Part shown: piece by piece, positions 12,179 to 36,072 of the stretch
How the letters are laid out: every line of letters begins with the position of its first letter
How positions within the stretch are numbered: the first letter of the stretch is position 1
Source of the DNA: a virus
Lineage: Duplodnaviria; Caudoviricetes
Virus record (IMG/VR): IMGVR_UViG_3300015608_002982
Span: 1-64,000 of that record
Length of the DNA: 64,000 nucleotides
Direction: 5' to 3' (one strand)
The notes under the pieces: model-generated
Seen by the model: the letters and a program-made list of their open reading frames with translations, nothing else
Told to the model about the DNA's origin: nothing
Database searches by the model: none
Made by a program: the position numbers and the translations under genes

Positions 12179-12190
12179 GTGGGTTTTTTT
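12160..12190. terminator. Bidirectional intrinsic terminator
   Basis: AAAAAACCCACTT-TGT-AAGTGGGTTTTTTT. Confidence 0.9.
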
Positions 12191-12759
12191 TATTTATTAT
12201 AAGTTAGTTTATATATTGTCTTGTATTGTAGAGCTATCAACTCGTCAATAATGTTGTGAATGTGTGTATCTTCTGCTTTAATGCAAGTTCTATTTGATTT
12301 AACAAACTCTACAGTTTCTTTGAAGTAATCTAATCTGTCCTTTGATCTAGAATCAGCTGTGTCGATTACATCATAACCTTCAATTAAACCATATTGACCT
12401 TGATATATTTCAACTATATCATCAATGAATTCAATAACTTCATTATAGTAAGCCTCAAGAGCTAAGTGAGCCGCGTGAGAACCCATATCACCTTTAACTG
12501 TCCAGTGATAAACTTGAGCCATCTCTCTACTTTCTAATAACTTAGAAATAAATTTTGAAACATCTCCAGATGCTTCAGATTTTTCAGAAGTACCTTCGGC
12601 TTTTTCTTCTTCAGATTCATCATCTCTATTTTCTTCTGATTTAGATTGACCAGACATTAACTTAATCAATTCTTCTTTTGACATATCTTCAAAATTTTCA
12701 GGAAGATTTGCCTCATTTATTTTCTTTTTAACGGGTTTGAAATCGGAAAACTTTTTCAT
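12190..12759 (-). CDS. CTS-bearing ferritin/Dps-like protein (DUF5856-like)
   Basis: MKKFSDFK..INEA N-terminus; VYHWTVKG, AAHLALEAYY..IDDIVEIYQGQYG. Confidence 0.7.
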   Translation of the reverse strand: MKKFSDFKPVKKKINEANLPENFEDMSKEELIKLMSGQSKSEENRDDESEEEKAEGTSEKSEASGDVSKFISKLLESREMAQVYHWTVKGDMGSHAAHLALEAYYNEVIEFIDDIVEIYQGQYGLIEGYDVIDTADSRSKDRLDYFKETVEFVKSNRTCIKAEDTHIHNIIDELIALQYKTIYKLTYNK

Positions 12760-19209: not shown

Positions 19210-19236
19210 AAAAACCCACCAATTGGTGGGTTTTTT
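19210..19236. terminator. Bidirectional intrinsic terminator
   Basis: AAAAACCCACC-AATT-GGTGGGTTTTTT. Confidence 0.9.
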
Positions 19237-19237
19237 A

Positions 19238-19897
19238 TTAGATAGATAAGAATATTTCTTTATCACCGTTTACCTCTTGTAGTAAGTATTTCTCGCCGTG
19301 TAAGGCTTTTACTCGTTTAAGCCAATCTAAGGTTTTAACTTTTACCACCCAAACTTCATCCTTTTTGTTTTTTGTTTTTGTAATTCCTTTTACAATAACA
19401 CCTTCTTTTAGATTGTAATCATTATTTCTAATAGATTCTATAAAGTCAAGTGTATAAGGTCCCTGATATACAACATCCGGTATATGTAAGTGACCAAAGT
19501 CTTCAATAAAGTTTTTTGGTGTCACAAATCCATGCTTATACATATTAACATCAAATAAAATAATGTCTTTTTTATCTGAGTCGTAATGTCTACCGGCAAA
19601 TGAGTTCTCACCTACATATTCAGCAAAAACAACAAAGCTTTCAATTCTTTTATAGCTTTTGTTATCTCTGAATACTTTAGGTAAAGTATCACCATATTTA
19701 TTTTTAAATAAAGTAATAGCCTCACCAAATTGTTCATGTGTTTCATCTATCATCGTGTTTCTGGTACCAAACTTATACCAACCACGTTTAGGATTCCATT
19801 CAGCACGAATATTTGAACCATCAAGCTTATCAAAAGCATAGATGTATTCGTTGAATAAACCTTTATTATAATAAGGTATTTTACAATATGTCTTCAT
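19238..19897 (-). CDS. RNA ligase, Rnl2-like nucleotidyltransferase core
   Basis: Motif I FDKLDGSN, VFAEY, ILFDV, KEGVIVK, KVKT. Confidence 0.8.
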   Translation of the reverse strand: MKTYCKIPYYNKGLFNEYIYAFDKLDGSNIRAEWNPKRGWYKFGTRNTMIDETHEQFGEAITLFKNKYGDTLPKVFRDNKSYKRIESFVVFAEYVGENSFAGRHYDSDKKDIILFDVNMYKHGFVTPKNFIEDFGHLHIPDVVYQGPYTLDFIESIRNNDYNLKEGVIVKGITKTKNKKDEVWVVKVKTLDWLKRVKALHGEKYLLQEVNGDKEIFLSI

Positions 19898-20762
19898 TAA
19901 ATAGTATATTTAACCATTTATTTTTATATGATGCAGCGTATGCGCCTGAGTTATTTTTTTGAAAATCATTTTTGTTTTTATATTTTAATGACTCTTTTTT
20001 ACACTCCTCAAAGTTCCAGTGTCCCTTAGGTTTTCTTATAGATAACATGTGTGAGCATATTTCATTAAGCCATCCATTTTTTTGAGCAGATCGATAGGCA
20101 CTTTGAGATTTCACTTGAAATTCTGATCTATATTTATATTTTAATGATTCTTCAAGACATCTATCTTTTGTCCAATATAAAGACTTATTCATATCACCAG
20201 TGCTACCTATACCACCAGCTTTTATTTTATTTAAAATATTAAAGCCTTTTGTCTTATATAGACTAATATATTCAACCTCTTTTTTTATAGCCTCTTGTAT
20301 ATCTATATAATCTGTTAATTTAATCAATTTAAAATCCCCGCATTTTTTTAAGTGGTTAAAAACAGTTCCTTTTAACATGTGTTGTTGATTTCTCCTTTCT
20401 ATGTTTTTTGTCAATCCAACATAAATAAATTTATCAGCAAATTCATAAACATATATACATCTTTTATCGTTAACGTAGTTATTACTCATGTGTGAGAACA
20501 TATAAATCCATCCATTTTTAATTATTTTTTTATACACACTTGGATTATTTGAATATAATTTAGACCTATTTCCATACTTTAAGGATTCAATATGACATTC
20601 ATTTTTACTCCATATTTTTACTGGCATCATGTGAGTGCATATTTCATCTAACCAATTATTTTTTAAAGCTGACATATATGCTCCTCTGTGATTTTTTTCA
20701 AATTCGCTTCTTTTTTGATAATATGAAGCAACCCTTATACATTCATCCTTCGTCCATTTCAT
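19881..20762 (-). CDS. GIY-YIG-type homing endonuclease with repeated WTKDxC..ESLKY modules
   Basis: CIYVYEF..IYVGLT..RRNQQH..EVEYI..GFNILN. Confidence 0.75.
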   Translation of the reverse strand: MKWTKDECIRVASYYQKRSEFEKNHRGAYMSALKNNWLDEICTHMMPVKIWSKNECHIESLKYGNRSKLYSNNPSVYKKIIKNGWIYMFSHMSNNYVNDKRCIYVYEFADKFIYVGLTKNIERRNQQHMLKGTVFNHLKKCGDFKLIKLTDYIDIQEAIKKEVEYISLYKTKGFNILNKIKAGGIGSTGDMNKSLYWTKDRCLEESLKYKYRSEFQVKSQSAYRSAQKNGWLNEICSHMLSIRKPKGHWNFEECKKESLKYKNKNDFQKNNSGAYAASYKNKWLNILFNEDIL

Positions 20763-20835: not shown

Positions 20836-21540
20836 TTATTTTAATTTATTTTTAATTAGTTCTGATGTGTTGAAATCGTCTCTTCTTGTAAATTGACTAT
20901 TTACAATCTTAAATGATCTATCAACCCAACCATTTTTACATTGTTTAATAACAATACCTTCTCTTATACCATCTCTATAGTCAGACGATAGTTCTGATTC
21001 CATTACAATCTCATTAATGCTGTTGAATTTCATATATTTAGACTTTATGAAACTAATTTTAGTATTTGACATAAGTTCTTCAAATATATCTGTTGATAGA
21101 TATTTTTTATCCTCAACAACATAGATATCAAATGCTAAAAACCAATCAGGTAGTTTATCATAATGTATTGAGTGTTGCGCAATCATCCACTCACCATATA
21201 TTGTTATTGGAGACATTAACTTTTTTGAAAGGTATTTAATATCTTCGCTGTGTTCATGTATCCAATTCCAAGCTGGACGAAATTGTAGCTTTGCTGGTGT
21301 TTCTTTTTTGATATAACCTTTTCTTAGAACTTTATTTCTATTTCTAAGTATAGCTGAGTCAAGCCAAGAAACACCAACATTTGATCCATCTACTTTTTCT
21401 TGAACATAGCCCTCAAATGGTAGTTCAACATCAATCAAAATATCATCATGTGTCATATTAGATATGTTTTTATCTAAATGTGCAATCCTTGTATATTCTG
21501 GGGATATATTGTATAAATTATTTATCTGTTTCATTTTCAT
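20836..21540 (-). CDS. RNA ligase, Rnl2-like
   Basis: VQEKVDGSNV, IYGEW, FLAFDI, REGIVIK, FKIV. Confidence 0.85.
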   Translation of the reverse strand: MKMKQINNLYNISPEYTRIAHLDKNISNMTHDDILIDVELPFEGYVQEKVDGSNVGVSWLDSAILRNRNKVLRKGYIKKETPAKLQFRPAWNWIHEHSEDIKYLSKKLMSPITIYGEWMIAQHSIHYDKLPDWFLAFDIYVVEDKKYLSTDIFEELMSNTKISFIKSKYMKFNSINEIVMESELSSDYRDGIREGIVIKQCKNGWVDRSFKIVNSQFTRRDDFNTSELIKNKLK

Positions 21541-22168
21541 TTAGTATTAGTAATCTATCTACACCTATAGCGAAGCCTACTCCACCTTCATATGAACCAC
21601 CGCCACAAACTTGTTTTGATGATCCTAACTCAGGACAAGCAATTTCAAATCCTTTACCACCTTTATAGTAGTCAAGTCCTCTAGTTGCATCTAGATTGAT
21701 TTCATAATTTTTTGTAACTAATTCAATTAGTTTAGTAGCAATCTCAACCATTTCTTCTGAATAGTCTTTAGAAGGATTTAAAACTTCAACACCGAATTGA
21801 GTGAATTGTCTCCATCTTCCAGCTTGTGTGTTTTCACCTCTAAAACATTCACCAATGTAAAACATCTTTACATCTTTTGTGAACTTGAACTTTTCAGTTG
21901 ACAATTGTTGAACAATTGCTGTGTATTCAGGACTTAAACATAAATCACGATTACCTCTATCTTTGAAGTTAAACATCATGTTTCTGTTTTCGTCTCCTAC
22001 TTTAGATTGAAATGTTTCTTGTTTCTGGATAACGGGTATCATTATTTCTTGATACCCATATGATTCCAGAATTTCAATCATTTGATTGAGTAAAACTCTT
22101 TTACTTTTAGCTTTATTAGCAAAAAGGATTCTTGTTCCTTTATATGTGCTATTTAATTTGATTTCCAT
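21518..22168 (-). CDS. hisS: Minimal histidyl-tRNA synthetase (catalytic core only, no anticodon-binding domain)
   Basis: KGTR, YGYQEI..P (motif 1), DRGNRDLCLSPEYT, FRGENTQAGRWRQFTQ (motif 2), GLDYY, GGGSY..GFAIGVDRL (motif 3); only 216 aa. Confidence 0.8.
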   Translation of the reverse strand: MEIKLNSTYKGTRILFANKAKSKRVLLNQMIEILESYGYQEIMIPVIQKQETFQSKVGDENRNMMFNFKDRGNRDLCLSPEYTAIVQQLSTEKFKFTKDVKMFYIGECFRGENTQAGRWRQFTQFGVEVLNPSKDYSEEMVEIATKLIELVTKNYEINLDATRGLDYYKGGKGFEIACPELGSSKQVCGGGSYEGGVGFAIGVDRLLILNENETDK

Positions 22169-22204: not shown

Positions 22205-22909
22205 TCATTCTTTATATCTAAAAATGTATTCACATTTAGCATATCTACCAGTTAGAAATTTACTAATTTTAGACCTATTTATATTTAAATTTCTAGATGC
22301 TTCGCTTATTGAGATGAACTCGTAAAGTAAGTTTCCTTCTCCATCATATACCAAAATAGATTTATTAAAAGCATTATTCTTTTTAATTAGATTAATTGTA
22401 TTTTCTGAATATACGCCACTTCTACCCTTGTTCCAGGGAACTTGACCAATATGTGATAATGATTGTTTTCTTCTATGTTCTTCACTTCTATTTGTTTTTT
22501 TAGTTCCTTTTAAGATTTTGGACATTTTTTTACCAAAGTCAACTTTATATTCATCTGAAACTTCTCTCCAAAATTTTTTAGACCTTTCTGATATTACCTT
22601 TTTATACTCTTCACTGTATGGTTTTCTACTTGAGTTTCCACTTCCACCATTTATCTTATTCACTAATTTAAATCCAATTTCATTGAATATGTTAATGCAG
22701 AATTTTTCAAAAAAATTAGCATCTTCTCTACTCATTTCCTTCTTTAGAAATCCATAATAGTAGCCTTCTTTGTCCACAATCTCATTCCACTCTTTACTTC
22801 TTCTTGATTTTGTCTTTATTCTATTCTTTTGTCCAAATCCTATGTAAAACGGTAGGTCTGTTTCTTTAGAAATATGTATATAAACATAAAATATATTTTC
22901 TTTATTCAT
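22205..22909 (-). CDS. GIY-YIG homing endonuclease with NUMOD3/NUMOD1 modules
   Basis: FYVYIH..PFYIG..NRI; RSEEHRRKQS, PWNKG, FISISEASRNL. Confidence 0.8.
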   Translation of the reverse strand: MNKENIFYVYIHISKETDLPFYIGFGQKNRIKTKSRRSKEWNEIVDKEGYYYGFLKKEMSREDANFFEKFCINIFNEIGFKLVNKINGGSGNSSRKPYSEEYKKVISERSKKFWREVSDEYKVDFGKKMSKILKGTKKTNRSEEHRRKQSLSHIGQVPWNKGRSGVYSENTINLIKKNNAFNKSILVYDGEGNLLYEFISISEASRNLNINRSKISKFLTGRYAKCEYIFRYKE

Positions 22910-23105
22910 AATAATTTTCTATTTCATTTTTTATGTATATATTAATATTTCTACGCTCTGCTCTTTTAGCCGCTCTTTGTTCTCTTTTAAGATCATCTTT
23001 AATTCTTTTTCTGACCTTAGGTTCAGTGATATGATGGAGTTTTCTTTTTCTTTTCCTGATACTTTCAACTTTGTCTTCGTACCAAGTTATATCTTTTGTT
23101 TTCAT
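22902..23105 (-). CDS. Small, highly basic protein; first gene after the attenuator
   Basis: 67 aa, K/R-rich (RKRKRK, KREQRAAKRAERR). Confidence 0.65.
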   Translation of the reverse strand: MKTKDITWYEDKVESIRKRKRKLHHITEPKVRKRIKDDLKREQRAAKRAERRNINIYIKNEIENYYE

Positions 23106-23184: not shown

Positions 23185-23229
23185 CTATGTCCAGTCAATC
23201 GGAATTTTGTATGTATGTAAAGTTCTCAT
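23185..23229 (-). CDS. 14-aa leader peptide MRTLHTYKIPIDWT
   Basis: Its GATTGACTGG segment is complementary to CCAGTCAATC of the terminator 5' arm and loop. Confidence 0.75.
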   Translation of the reverse strand: MRTLHTYKIPIDWT

Positions 23230-23274: not shown

Positions 23275-23305
23275 CAAATATAGTAAATATTTTTTACTTA
23301 CCAAA
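23275..23305 (-). promoter_or_regulatory. Bacteroidota housekeeping-sigma promoter driving the leader
   Basis: Minus strand TTTG (23305-23302) - 19 nt - TATATTTG (23282-23275). Confidence 0.75.
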
Positions 23306-23343: not shown

Positions 23344-24144
23344 ATGGAAAATACAAAAGTTTGTAAAAACTGTTTAGATATTAAAACATTTGATTGTTTT
23401 TATAAAAAACCAAATGGTAAAAAAGGCTATATATCAATATGCAAAGAGTGTCATTTGAAAAAAAGTAAGAAATATAATACTAAAAATTCAGAGTCACTAA
23501 AGGAATATAAAAAACAATATAGAGAAGAAAATAAAGAATTTATCTTAAAAAAAGAAAAAGATAAAAGAGATAGTTTGACAGATTATGAAAAGGAGTTAAA
23601 AAGTTTATATCAAAAAGAGTGGAGACAGAAAAACGCTGATAAAATGAAAGAATATGATAAGAATTATTATAACGATAATAAAGATCTAATACTTACTAGA
23701 GCTTCAAAGTATAGAGTTGAGAATAGAGAGAAAATTAAAGAATATCTATCAAATTATAAGCCCATTAGAAATGAAAAAAGAAATGAAAGATTAAAAACTG
23801 ATATTGTTTTTTTATTAGAGAAAAAAATTAGAAATTATATATATGAATCATTTAAGAACAACGGGTATAAGAAATCTTCAAAAACTGAAAGTATTTTAGG
23901 TTGTTCATTTGACGACTTTAGACTATACTTAGAATCAAAATTTGAACCTTGGATGACCTGGGAAAATAGAGGTCTATATAACGGTGAGTTAAACTATGGT
24001 TGGGATATAGACCATATTATACCTATTTCGTCTGCAGAATCAGAAGATGATGTGATAAGATTAAACCATTATACTAACTTGCAACCTCTATGTAGTTATA
24101 TAAATAGATATATTAAGAGAGATTCAATAAATATTGATAGATGA
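23344..24144 (+). CDS. HNH-type homing endonuclease (Cys-rich N-terminus, long helical linker)
   Basis: CKNC..CKEC; LGCSFDDF..WMTWEN..WDIDHIIP..HYTNLQPL. Confidence 0.8.
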   Translation: MENTKVCKNCLDIKTFDCFYKKPNGKKGYISICKECHLKKSKKYNTKNSESLKEYKKQYREENKEFILKKEKDKRDSLTDYEKELKSLYQKEWRQKNADKMKEYDKNYYNDNKDLILTRASKYRVENREKIKEYLSNYKPIRNEKRNERLKTDIVFLLEKKIRNYIYESFKNNGYKKSSKTESILGCSFDDFRLYLESKFEPWMTWENRGLYNGELNYGWDIDHIIPISSAESEDDVIRLNHYTNLQPLCSYINRYIKRDSINIDR

Positions 24145-24829
24145 TATAAGAATCACAAAGATCTTCATATGGCTTTGGTGTAGTAGACATTGGTAGGATA
24201 TCATCTTTTATCTCAATACAGTGTTTTGTCCAAAAATCTTTATTTTTTTCATTTTCAACAATAGACCTAAATATTTCAGTTTTGGTAAATTTTCCACCAG
24301 GAATACCCATATTGTTTCTCCATATGTATTCAAATCTTGCCTTTTTACCACCTATTTCCTTTATTGTTGGTTTGTATGTTAATTTGCACGCCTCCAACTT
24401 GAGTGTTGACGGAGATAGAACTGTTATATCTTCTGAAACTCTATCAAATAGTTTCTTTCTTAAAAGTGTTGAGAAGGTAACAAGGTCAATAAGGTCACCT
24501 ACTTGAGCACCAAAGTTATAACCTTCAATTCCAATCTTAGTCTCTTTTAGAGGATCGATATTAGCAAGAATATCTTTAACTATTTCATCAGTAATTAAAT
24601 CATAATCTTTTAATTTAACTAACTCACCTTCAGAGTAATCCTCAAATTCTCTGTATTCAATAAATTTATAAGTTACATATTGTTCGGCTGATTTGAACCA
24701 CTTAGTGATTCCTTTCTTACCAAATACTTTAGATTCTCTACAATAGTTGTAGATTTTAAATGTATCACCAGAACTAACCACAAGTGCTGTTGATATTAAT
24801 GAAGGGTCAATTGCGACAATATTACACAT
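24113..24829 (-). CDS. RuvC-like Holliday junction resolvase
   Basis: IVAIDPSL, IGIEGY, SPSTLK, EDLCDSY acidic tetrad pattern. Confidence 0.75.
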   Translation of the reverse strand: MCNIVAIDPSLISTALVVSSGDTFKIYNYCRESKVFGKKGITKWFKSAEQYVTYKFIEYREFEDYSEGELVKLKDYDLITDEIVKDILANIDPLKETKIGIEGYNFGAQVGDLIDLVTFSTLLRKKLFDRVSEDITVLSPSTLKLEACKLTYKPTIKEIGGKKARFEYIWRNNMGIPGGKFTKTEIFRSIVENEKNKDFWTKHCIEIKDDILPMSTTPKPYEDLCDSYIIYQYLLNLS

Positions 24830-25442
24830 TAGCCTTATCTACTTTTATATCTCTGTTAAATTTAGAACAGAGTGGTTGTAGGTTTGTGTAGTGATTTAAC
24901 CTTATTATATCTTCTTCCGATATTGCACTTGATACTGGTATTATGTGGTCTATATCCCAACCATAATATAACTCACCGTTATATTTTCCGTAATTTTCCC
25001 AAGACATCCAAGATTCAAACTTTGATTCTAAATACGCCTTGAAATCTTCAAACTCACAACCAAGTATGTCTATAGTTTTTGATTTTTTTGAATATCCGTT
25101 TCTTCTTATAGAATTACCTATCAATGACCTTATTTGACCTTTTAATTTGTAAAAAGAATCTTTATCTCTCTTTTCTTTGTTGTATCTTTTCTTATTTTCG
25201 TTAAGTCTTTCTTTATTTAATTGGTAATATATTGATTTCTTTTCTTTTATCTTATTAGATGATTTTAATCTATATTCTTTATTCTTTATAAGAATAATTT
25301 CTTTATTTTCTTTATAGTGATCTTTTGCATAAGACTTTCTACATTCTTTGCATTGATTTCTATACCCATCAATTGAATTATCTCTCTTTGTAAAACAATT
25401 TATTTCTTTATTTTCTTTACAAGTTATACATATCTTATACAT
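24822..25442 (-). CDS. HNH-type homing endonuclease, paralog of 23344..24144
   Basis: CITC..CKEC; LGCEFEDF..WMSWEN..WDIDHIIP..HYTNLQPL. Confidence 0.8.
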   Translation of the reverse strand: MYKICITCKENKEINCFTKRDNSIDGYRNQCKECRKSYAKDHYKENKEIILIKNKEYRLKSSNKIKEKKSIYYQLNKERLNENKKRYNKEKRDKDSFYKLKGQIRSLIGNSIRRNGYSKKSKTIDILGCEFEDFKAYLESKFESWMSWENYGKYNGELYYGWDIDHIIPVSSAISEEDIIRLNHYTNLQPLCSKFNRDIKVDKANV

Positions 25443-34945: not shown

Positions 34946-35992
34946 TTATGTTTTATATAATTTATAAAATGTTTTTTTTGATATTTTTAGCTTTTTTATT
35001 ATGTCAGAGTTTTTAAATCCAACTCTTTGTAGCTTCAATATCTCATCTTTTACTATTATATATTTTTCTTGCCTTGTTAGTCTATCTTCGTCTATGTTAT
35101 CCCATTTTCTCTTCATAATAGGCAAATTTAATCTAAGGCATTCTTTTTTTATTTTCCTTAAAAGTATGTTATTTGATATTGTTAAAATTGAATATCCGTC
35201 ATTTCCTATTCTAGAATATGTTTTTTCTTTATTAATCAAGAAATATTCATATAGAAAATTTTCAATAAATAATAAATTATTTAACCATGATTTATGAAGA
35301 TGTATTCTTATATTTGAATCCTCTCTTTTATACACTTTTGATATATTACCATCACCATCAATGATTCCAATTATCAGAGAGAATATCAATTCTTTATTGA
35401 ATGTGTATAAATTGAAGTTCGGAGGATTATATGTCTTTTTTGGTCTAATCTGAAATTTTTCACATATTTTAGGACAAATTTCTTTATTTTGTATAGAAAC
35501 TAAGCACATTTTATCATTGATTATTATTTTCGAACATTCAATATAATTTTTAAACTTTTCTAAATGGTTAATATCCTTAGTGGATAATATTATTTTTATT
35601 CTTTCGCCGTTTAATATAGTACCATCTGCTAGTATAAATCCTATCCAATAAAAACTCTCTAATTCATCATTAATCAAAATAGACATATCAGAATCTCTGA
35701 GAAAATCATAACTCCTACTTAAATTTAGGCTATTTGATTTTAACTTTATTGAATCCCAACTCCTGTTTGGTAATAGATTTACTAAATCCTCTTTGATCAT
35801 ATTTTCGTAATTTTTTACAACTATATCTATTTCATCTTCTGTCCATTTTAGACAGCTTTTAATTTTATTTGGTAGTAACTTTTTTCTTTTTTTCCTTATT
35901 GAATTCCAATTTCTATTAATTAATATTCTCAATAAGTCTTCTTTACTTTCATAAGTCTTTAAAATCTCTATTTCATCTTCTGTCCATTTCAT
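34946..35992 (-). CDS. LAGLIDADG homing endonuclease with N-terminal Myb-like repeats
   Basis: KWTEDEI repeats; YWIGFILADG and LIIGIIDGDG; start MKWTE follows an ATATATA motif. Confidence 0.85.
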   Translation of the reverse strand: MKWTEDEIEILKTYESKEDLLRILINRNWNSIRKKRKKLLPNKIKSCLKWTEDEIDIVVKNYENMIKEDLVNLLPNRSWDSIKLKSNSLNLSRSYDFLRDSDMSILINDELESFYWIGFILADGTILNGERIKIILSTKDINHLEKFKNYIECSKIIINDKMCLVSIQNKEICPKICEKFQIRPKKTYNPPNFNLYTFNKELIFSLIIGIIDGDGNISKVYKREDSNIRIHLHKSWLNNLLFIENFLYEYFLINKEKTYSRIGNDGYSILTISNNILLRKIKKECLRLNLPIMKRKWDNIDEDRLTRQEKYIIVKDEILKLQRVGFKNSDIIKKLKISKKTFYKLYKT

Positions 35993-36072
35993 ATAAAGTC
36001 TAATATTTATTGTATATATAAAATTTTGTCCTCTTCCTTTCATGTTAATCAAAAATATACTATATTTGTGTT

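Follow-up and report, generated by a model that had tools for sequence, protein, structure and literature searches.

Can the catalytic core of a histidyl-tRNA synthetase (HisRS) be a working enzyme once the domain that reads the anticodon is gone, or is a gene coding for such a core merely a truncated copy? This question is raised by a locus in positions 1 to 64,000 of the IMG/VR virus record IMGVR_UViG_3300015608_002982 (Duplodnaviria; Caudoviricetes). In this stretch of 64,000 nucleotides (nt), referred to as the window in the rest of the text, a preliminary description made from the sequence alone had pointed to an anticodon-blind HisRS of 216 amino acids (aa), hereafter mini-HisRS:

21518..22168, minus strand: mini-HisRS gene, catalytic core of HisRS carrying motifs 1-3, HisA and HisB

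The comparisons reported below indicate that mini-HisRS is a real, widespread and selected minimal HisRS.

The open reading frame (ORF) is intact, with an ATG start, 216 aa and no internal stop codon. Profile searches and alignment with PDB entries recovered everything first noted in it, namely class II motifs 1-3 and the segments GLDYY and GGGSY. Mini-HisRS matches the Pfam family tRNA-synt_His (PF13393) at 2.5e-24 (86.5 bits for a cut-off of 25) and contains the HisA segment RGLDYY (residues 163-168), the HisB segment GGGSYE (189-194), the TxE histidine-binding loop PEYT (80-83) and the segments LSPEYT, FRGE..GRWRQF..Q..E (motif 2) and GFAIGVDRL (motif 3). The class II invariant residues P45, R110 and R205 are each conserved in at least 95% of 95 family members. 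A phmmer comparison with the PDB aligned residues 31-143 with residues 30-147 of E. coli HisRS, and residues 144-209 with residues 240-315; about 90-100 insertion-domain residues and everything after motif 3 are therefore missing from mini-HisRS. The stop codon lies 11 residues past the motif 3 arginine, in agreement with the described end just past motif 3 without an anticodon domain, and a profile search found no HGTP anticodon-binding domain (PF03129) in the contig of the window or in a 642-kilobase (kb) relative. The insertion domain had been described as shortened, but alignment indicates that it is absent altogether: the spacing between motif 2 and HisA has a median of 31 residues in the mini forms (n = 95) compared to 134 in full-length HisRS (n = 67), and the median number of residues past motif 3 is 3 in the former compared to 108 in the latter. 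Mini-HisRS shares with bacterial HisS (class IIa; E. coli 1KMM/1KMN/2EL9, T. thermophilus 4RDX) the catalytic fold, motifs 1-3, HisA and HisB and the ATP, histidine and catalytic residues, but it is half the size and lacks both the insertion of ~100 residues and the C-terminal anticodon-binding domain of ~105 residues. Because half of each model has no counterpart in mini-HisRS, its NCBIfam scores remain under the cut-offs, both for hisS (TIGR00442, 155.5 bits for a cut-off of 286.75) and for HisZ (TIGR00443, 98 bits for a cut-off of 271.65).

Structure prediction, one of the checks proposed in the preliminary description, returned a HisRS catalytic fold. The AlphaFold 2 (AF2) model, computed from an alignment of 44 family members, has a predicted local distance difference test (pLDDT) of 91.3 and a predicted template modelling score (pTM) of 0.88. 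It superposes best on the catalytic domain of E. coli HisRS, with a template modelling (TM) score of 0.86-0.87, compared to 0.77-0.79 for HisZ and ~0.7 for PylRS cores. The net charge of the mini cores (mean 0.0) differs from that of full-length cores (mean −3.1, p = 1.6e-5), a shift that is suggestive, not decisive, of compensation for the lost RNA-binding surface. Mini-HisRS contains no histidine residue, nor do 119 of its 120 close relatives. We considered this composition as a feedback-proof design and rejected the idea as not significant: histidine frequency is 1.2% family-wide, 1.1% in full-length HisRS and 1.4% in the window background, a 216-aa protein would lack histidine by chance with a probability of about 0.05, and 4 of 52 ORFs of the window are likewise histidine-free.

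The compact architecture is not peculiar to the window. A word-indexed search within a length band returned 1572 clusters at 90% identity, the best 120 of which are all 209-220 aa long. An exhaustive search of 50%-identity representatives yielded ~40 clusters of 196-232 aa, with identity down to 33%, each matched in one stretch across the whole query; full-length HisRS (~420 aa, matched in two stretches) ranked below all of them. Of 80 IMG/VR loci, nearly all have a reading frame that closes 0-13 residues past motif 3. The preliminary description had allowed that homologs might consistently carry an anticodon domain; instead, the relatives are uniformly ~210 aa. In a tree including the 40 nearest full-length enzymes, the mini forms occupy one side of a branch supported at 100% by the Shimodaira-Hasegawa-like approximate likelihood ratio test (SH-aLRT). 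The ratio of nonsynonymous to synonymous substitutions (dN/dS) of the window gene was 0.07-0.25 against 13 relatives and 0.07-0.13 against the closest ones, with dS values of 0.9-2.3, i.e. saturating. These comparisons argue for a conserved family rather than a truncated copy, and for strong purifying selection acting on it.

Selection appears to have kept the active site. The 95 distinct mini proteins match the 67 full-length HisRS in conserving, to at least 90%, the residues that contact ATP, histidine and the transition state; these residues correspond to E. coli E83, T85, R113, E115, R121, F125, Q127, E131, R259, Y263/264, Y288 and R311, whose catalytic and ligand-binding roles we take to be those familiar from the HisRS literature. 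Also conserved are the glutamine and arginine of the motif 2 loop, equivalent to Q118 and R123, which we take to be the readers of G-1 and of the 5′ phosphate, and the motif 1 proline is kept in 91 of 95 members. In one member, P0122 (564 aa), mini-HisRS is split by a LAGLIDADG intein that separates Y from T in the PEYT loop, with Cys at its start and HN ahead of the T at its end; in essential active sites, positions of this kind are the ones where inteins are usually found. The proposal of an anticodon-blind HisRS core is supported: the protein appears catalytically equipped, is conserved and has no known domain for reading the anticodon.

The window is part of an 89-kb IMG/VR contig, and its mini-HisRS is 87% identical to genes found in LR756502.1 (642 kb) and LR745206.1 (634 kb). 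Al-Shayeb et al. reported four largest genomes of 634, 636, 642 and 735 kb, and placed all genomes above 634 kb in the Mahaphage clade, with Bacteroidetes as predicted hosts (PMC7162821). The window comes from a Bacteroidota huge phage of the Mahaphage type. More distant copies occur in a Flavobacterium metagenome-assembled genome (55% identity) and in the cultured Sinorhizobium phage Phosso (469 kb), whose 196-aa protein (44% identity) is annotated as histidyl-tRNA synthetase. LR756502.1 and Phosso are both complete; in both, the mini form is the sole PF13393 gene, and in LR756502.1 it is also the sole class IIa core gene. The single HGTP anticodon domain of Phosso lies inside a separate class IIa synthetase ORF of 665 aa, and LR756502.1 has none, so neither phage carries a detached HGTP partner domain. 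Phosso has a second short class IIa core (PV764938.1, 172624-173127; tRNA-synt_2b match in a 251-aa frame), which may be another minimal synthetase. Compact forms are also present in cultured Alphaproteobacteria (Thalassospira, Pararhizobium and Azospirillum), inside Pro/His/Leu/Tyr tRNA arrays that include a G-1:C73 tRNA-His; a full-length HisS is present as well in all three cultured alphaproteobacterial genomes searched. A NADAR-domain gene (L012:6635-7138; loci are designated by L numbers) begins 10 nt past a 45%-identical mini-HisRS (P0133).

The architecture is already present in databases, and the family appears unstudied. PHROGs v4 has no family for it, and labels are inconsistent: the Joint Genome Institute (JGI) and GenBank use 'histidyl-tRNA synthetase', and ESM Atlas clusters are auto-named HisZ-family or HisRS-family. 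A full-text literature search found no study of a natural phage mini-HisRS; the word 'histidyl' is not mentioned in Al-Shayeb et al. (PMC7162821), and HisZ is the only HisRS entry of a 2022 review of aminoacyl-tRNA synthetase duplicates and paralogs (PMC9437257). ESM Atlas also lists a 213-aa HisRS-like cluster, mainly from Candidatus Zambryskiibacteriota (score 0.89, a lead only); a mini form serving there as sole HisRS would, if true, bear on autonomous function.

LR756502.1 yielded 50 tRNA matches, among them a tRNA-His with encoded G-1, C73 and CCA located 5.5 kb upstream of mini-HisRS, and in Phosso a tRNA-His(GUG) lies 275 nt upstream. In 43 of 66 distinct IMG/VR loci, tRNA genes lie no further than 10 kb from mini-HisRS, often less than 100 nt away and on the same strand. 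A genomic G at position −1 was found in 28 of 29 distinct tRNA-His genes near family members, compared to 8 of 466 other tRNAs, which accords with the earlier statement that G-1 is the main tRNA-His identity element; the discriminator of these 29 genes is C73 in 22 and A73 in six. Caulobacter has no G-1, and its HisRS/tRNA-His pair is orthogonal to the E. coli type (PMC3875453). In both Phosso and Pararhizobium, a G-1:C73 tRNA-His is carried together with the mini enzyme. As Rhizobiales, like Caulobacter, are not known to have a G-1 of their own, a phage or island G-1 tRNA-His travelling with its own mini enzyme would be as expected for a self-contained pair.

Several tRNA genes at these loci are unusual. 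A long variable arm, giving a class II-like shape, is present in five distinct tRNA-His(GUG) genes of phages, 86-90 nt in length (L034:8687-8775, L039:8026-8115, L040:5893-5982, L055:9814-9903 and L056:7672-7757), all of which keep G-1:C73; these long-arm genes lie near mini-HisRS, in some cases next to a tRNA-His of normal size. L083:10448-10522, located directly downstream of a mini-HisRS frame that is shortened, codes for a tRNA with a Tyr anticodon (GTA) and a His-type acceptor end (encoded G-1, GTG.../...CAC stem, A73), which an anticodon-blind HisRS might charge. The tRNA-His of LR756502.1 (L005:13257-13333, positions 373257-373333 of the genome) has U:U mismatches at 5:68 and 6:67 of the acceptor stem (GTGATTG/CTTTCAC); a second tRNA-His of L023 has the identical mismatched stem and L018 a one-mismatch variant. 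LR756502.1 also encodes tRNA-Lys, tRNA-Glu and tRNA-Gln genes of 85-89 nt. Chromosomal arrays containing only Pro, His, Leu and Tyr tRNAs flank mini-HisRS in Thalassospira xianhensis (L100:4545-6775) and Pararhizobium sp. BT-229 (L101:2572-4788), the latter combining a G-1:C73 tRNA-His with a tRNA that has a GTG anticodon and G73 but lacks G-1, and with a tRNA-His-like gene whose anticodon is ATG. An anticodon-blind mini-HisRS could histidylate odd phage RNAs that have a His-type acceptor end, be they long-variable-arm tRNA-His, A73 tRNA-His or even tRNAs with other anticodons.

Expression of mini-HisRS may also be connected to tRNA-His. Upstream of the gene, the window contains two elements of a putative attenuator:

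23185..23229, minus strand: leader ORF MRTLHTYKIPIDWT, 14 codons, one His codon
23127..23161, minus strand: intrinsic-terminator-like hairpin (23161-23137; 9 base pairs, 6 of them GC) followed by a T-tract, the attenuator terminator

Over 10 nt, the 3′ part of the window leader (GATTGACTGG) is complementary to the terminator hairpin in its 5′ arm and loop. This leader-terminator unit is clearly homologous to that of L019/L020 (86% identical), which has the leader MKHLHTYKIMIDWG and lies ~40 nt before the mini-HisRS start. A His-codon leader with a terminator is found 85-160 nt upstream of mini-HisRS in L022/L025, L023, L032, L037 and L019. The leader reads MKMKTTYKLHHHTEKSGS in L022/L025 (..LHHH..), ..THFHFHF.. 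in L023 and MNMSTHTHQRTHYM in L032, and has three His codons in L037; overall, the leaders of L022, L023, L032, L037 and L019 contain 2-4 His codons, each leader being followed by a terminator. We read the unit as a predicted ancestral His-sensing attenuator of mini-HisRS, which would tie its expression to the supply of charged tRNA-His. In the relatives, the gene is preceded, as with hisL-type attenuators, by a short ORF in which His codons cluster, by a terminator and by an antiterminator segment that is complementary; the arrangement differs from hisL in controlling a synthetase rather than biosynthetic genes, and in having 1-4 His codons rather than seven. Rfam searches of L001-L003 found no His_leader or other cis-regulatory family near mini-HisRS.

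The comparisons show how the protein is built and folded, how large, conserved and selected its family is, which tRNA genes accompany it and how the attenuator is laid out; histidine activation, tRNA charging, the dimer state and the direction of regulation are inferred. The reading that we favour, and hold to be probable, is that mini-HisRS histidylates tRNA-His by its acceptor end only. The stand-alone class II core would activate histidine with ATP and transfer it to tRNA-His, recognizing solely the acceptor end (G-1, discriminator base and 5′ phosphate) via the motif 2 loop and leaving the anticodon unread. In huge and jumbo phages, mini-HisRS would be part of the phage translation kit, mostly encoded within tRNA gene arrays, and its substrates would be the phage-encoded G-1 tRNA-His and probably host tRNA-His as well. 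In the clade of the window, expression would originally have been set by the His-codon attenuator, a shortage of charged tRNA-His leading to more enzyme. A stronger version of this reading holds that mini-HisRS is the fully autonomous smallest natural synthetase, which reads only the acceptor-end 'operational code' (G-1/N73) and forms with phage tRNA-His an anticodon-independent pair tuned by the His-codon attenuator; we regard this version as possible, falling somewhat short of probable.

Work on known enzymes lends plausibility to acceptor-end recognition. E. coli HisRS charges a tRNA-His whose anticodon is CUA, and G-1 is the major identity element (PMC3875453). A 320-aa N-terminal catalytic fragment of E. 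coli HisRS, a core without the anticodon-binding domain, keeps histidine activation according to Augustine & Francklyn 1997 as cited in PMC3060492, and the HisRS urzymes, cores of 119-145 aa likewise devoid of that domain, also retain it (PMC3060492). These constructs share with mini-HisRS the idea of acceptor-end-only recognition. They are laboratory products with activity losses of 2000-fold (as cited for the fragment) to 10^6-10^7-fold, whereas mini-HisRS belongs to a natural, selected family; it has also lost the insertion domain but, in contrast to the urzymes, retains HisA, HisB and motif 3. PylRS lacking PylSn (e.g. from Methanomethylophilus alvus, ~275 aa) is a natural class II synthetase that, like mini-HisRS, has little beyond the catalytic domain, and it is not known to read the anticodon. 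It differs from mini-HisRS in its amino acid specificity and tRNA-binding surface, is ~60 residues longer and is cellular, not viral.

A number of observations weigh against acceptor-end-only histidylation. The insertion domain, which mini-HisRS has lost, is thought to clamp the acceptor stem. The sub-cut-off hisS score (155 vs 287 bits) does not favour a standard HisRS. The host already has a HisRS, so the gain for Bacteroidota phages is unexplained. When HisRS was engineered to lack the anticodon-binding domain, it showed no activity in vivo, and this domain is credited with helping the enzyme to dimerise and to discriminate acceptors (PMC7590224); the catalytic fragment of the E. coli enzyme is ~2000-fold down, as reported in PMC3060492. 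The search for tRNA-His that the preliminary description had suggested succeeded in LR756502.1 and Phosso but not closer to home, as there are no tRNA genes in the window's own 89-kb contig. Furthermore, the tRNA gene nearest to mini-HisRS is tRNA-His in only 5 of 43 loci, not significantly above its 5.7% share; the gene is therefore linked to tRNA arrays generally and not to tRNA-His, and specific adjacency to tRNA-His was rejected. Regarding regulation, the window unit has a single His codon and is separated from mini-HisRS by two inserted ORFs, and this copy of the attenuator appears to be decayed. We found no family-wide excess of short His-rich ORFs upstream of mini-HisRS (34 upstream compared to ~38 per control stretch), so that the case for the attenuator is positional and structural and confined to one clade.

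The alternatives to acceptor-end-only histidylation draw in part on the genes that surround mini-HisRS. In the window, it belongs to a minus-strand gene string composed, in order, of a promoter-like site, the leader ORF, the terminator, a 67-aa ORF, a NUMOD gene, mini-HisRS, an RNA ligase gene, a GIY-YIG gene, a ligase-like gene and a closing terminator. The elements not listed above are as follows:

23277..23304, minus strand: promoter-like site upstream of the leader (TTGGTA-16-TATATT, consensus match only)
22902..23105, minus strand: very basic 67-aa ORF of no family, kept upstream of mini-HisRS in 4 nearest-clade loci
22205..22909, minus strand: homing-endonuclease-like gene (NUMOD1/NUMOD3), between the attenuator and mini-HisRS
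20836..21540, minus strand: RNA ligase gene (Pfam RNA_ligase PF09414, phrog_548), its start overlapping the mini-HisRS stop by 23 nt
19881..20762, minus strand: GIY-YIG homing-endonuclease-like gene
19238..19897, minus strand: gene for a 219-aa ligase-like protein with a ligase-type KxDGxN and an EGxxxK-like motif
19210..19235, minus strand: terminator-like hairpin closing the gene string

An unlikely alternative is that mini-HisRS is a non-autonomous subunit, which would either heterodimerise with the host full-length HisRS via motif 1, thereby altering its activity or specificity, or depend on an unrecognised phage tRNA-binding protein acting in trans. The retained motif 1 proline is compatible with such a role, as are the poor or missing activity of engineered cores without the anticodon-binding domain (PMC7590224, PMC3060492) and the presence of the very basic 67-aa ORF in the same operon of the nearest clade. 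This ORF is however limited to 4 close loci, and our search for a conserved partner gene found none: no protein-coding neighbour is conserved family-wide across 67 loci, the best one recurring in 6. In addition, the 642-kb relative is without any HGTP anticodon domain, and heterodimerisation would have to bridge an identity of only 25-40%.

We find it distinctly unlikely that mini-HisRS adenylates histidine but passes it to an acceptor other than tRNA or acts in signalling, in the manner of AsnA, PoxA/EpmA or the amino acid:carrier-protein ligases. Truncated paralogs of aminoacyl-tRNA synthetases often work outside translation (PMC9437257), and mini-HisRS has lost both tRNA-holding domains. 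Against such a role, the equivalents of Q118 and R123, presumed readers of G-1 and the 5′ phosphate, are as conserved as in true HisRS, the gene is located in tRNA arrays, no recurring carrier-protein or other acceptor gene lies nearby, and the His-codon leaders would couple expression to tRNA-His charging.

The preliminary description had also proposed that the enzyme could charge tRNAs whose anticodon loop is altered, or cleaved and religated. Mini-HisRS would then recharge tRNAs nicked or altered by host anticodon nucleases, together with the adjacent RNA ligases, a role we consider very unlikely. What survives of the proposal is the gene linkage in the nearest clade: besides the overlapping RNA ligase start, the window shares with L017, L018, L024 and L026 a linked KxDGxN paralog, which adjoins mini-HisRS (5 nt) in L017 and L026 and lies 1-7.7 kb off in L018 and L024, and huge phages are reported to carry genes to ligate cleaved tRNAs (PMC7162821). 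However, a PF09414 neighbour is present in the window, L017 and L026 only, and RNA-ligase neighbours are absent from the other relatives at 73-86% identity (L019-L025) and from the rest of the family. The linkage is local to the nearest clade and does not define the family. The 219-aa ligase-like protein itself had no match in Pfam, PHROG or PDB, an hhalign comparison with the RNA ligase gave a probability of 10%, and its AF2 model was unusable (pLDDT 42). No end-healing kinase or phosphatase was seen among the neighbours scanned. Moreover, a religated tRNA regains a normal anticodon and would therefore be charged by the host HisRS.

Finally, a HisZ-like or otherwise catalytically dead regulatory protein, which had been offered as an alternative from the start, is most improbable and was rejected: HisZ, the regulatory subunit of ATP phosphoribosyltransferase, is a HisRS paralog that likewise lacks the anticodon-binding domain, and ESM Atlas auto-names some clusters after it, but HisZ retains the insertion region, measures 300-400 aa, depends on HisG and is devoid of adenylation activity (PMC9437257), whereas mini-HisRS keeps all catalytic residues, scores higher with the HisS than with the HisZ profile (155 vs 98 bits) and has relatives, LR756502.1 and Phosso, whose complete genomes lack HisG.

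Other genes of the window deserve mention. Positions 482-1456 of the plus strand code for a 324-aa protein combining a TROVE (Ro60-like) segment with a vWA domain, which suggests a role in RNA quality control. The region is dense in homing endonucleases; in addition to the GIY-YIG and NUMOD genes, it contains a pair of paralogous HNH endonuclease genes with near-identical C-terminal halves (23344-24144, plus strand, and 24822-25442, minus strand) and a LAGLIDADG gene (34946-36052, minus strand). A 189-aa protein encoded at 12190-12759 on the minus strand matches phrog_858, 'starvation-inducible transcriptional regulator' (1e-16).

Activity on its own would make mini-HisRS the smallest aminoacyl-tRNA synthetase in nature. 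It would then be the living counterpart of the catalytic-core and urzyme constructs that have served to support the view of the first synthetases as readers of the acceptor stem, and this long-standing idea could be tested on an enzyme shaped by selection. Acceptor-end-only histidylation, if true, would give genetic-code engineering a synthetase/tRNA pair that is very compact and independent of the anticodon, and it would explain one route by which huge phages take over translation.

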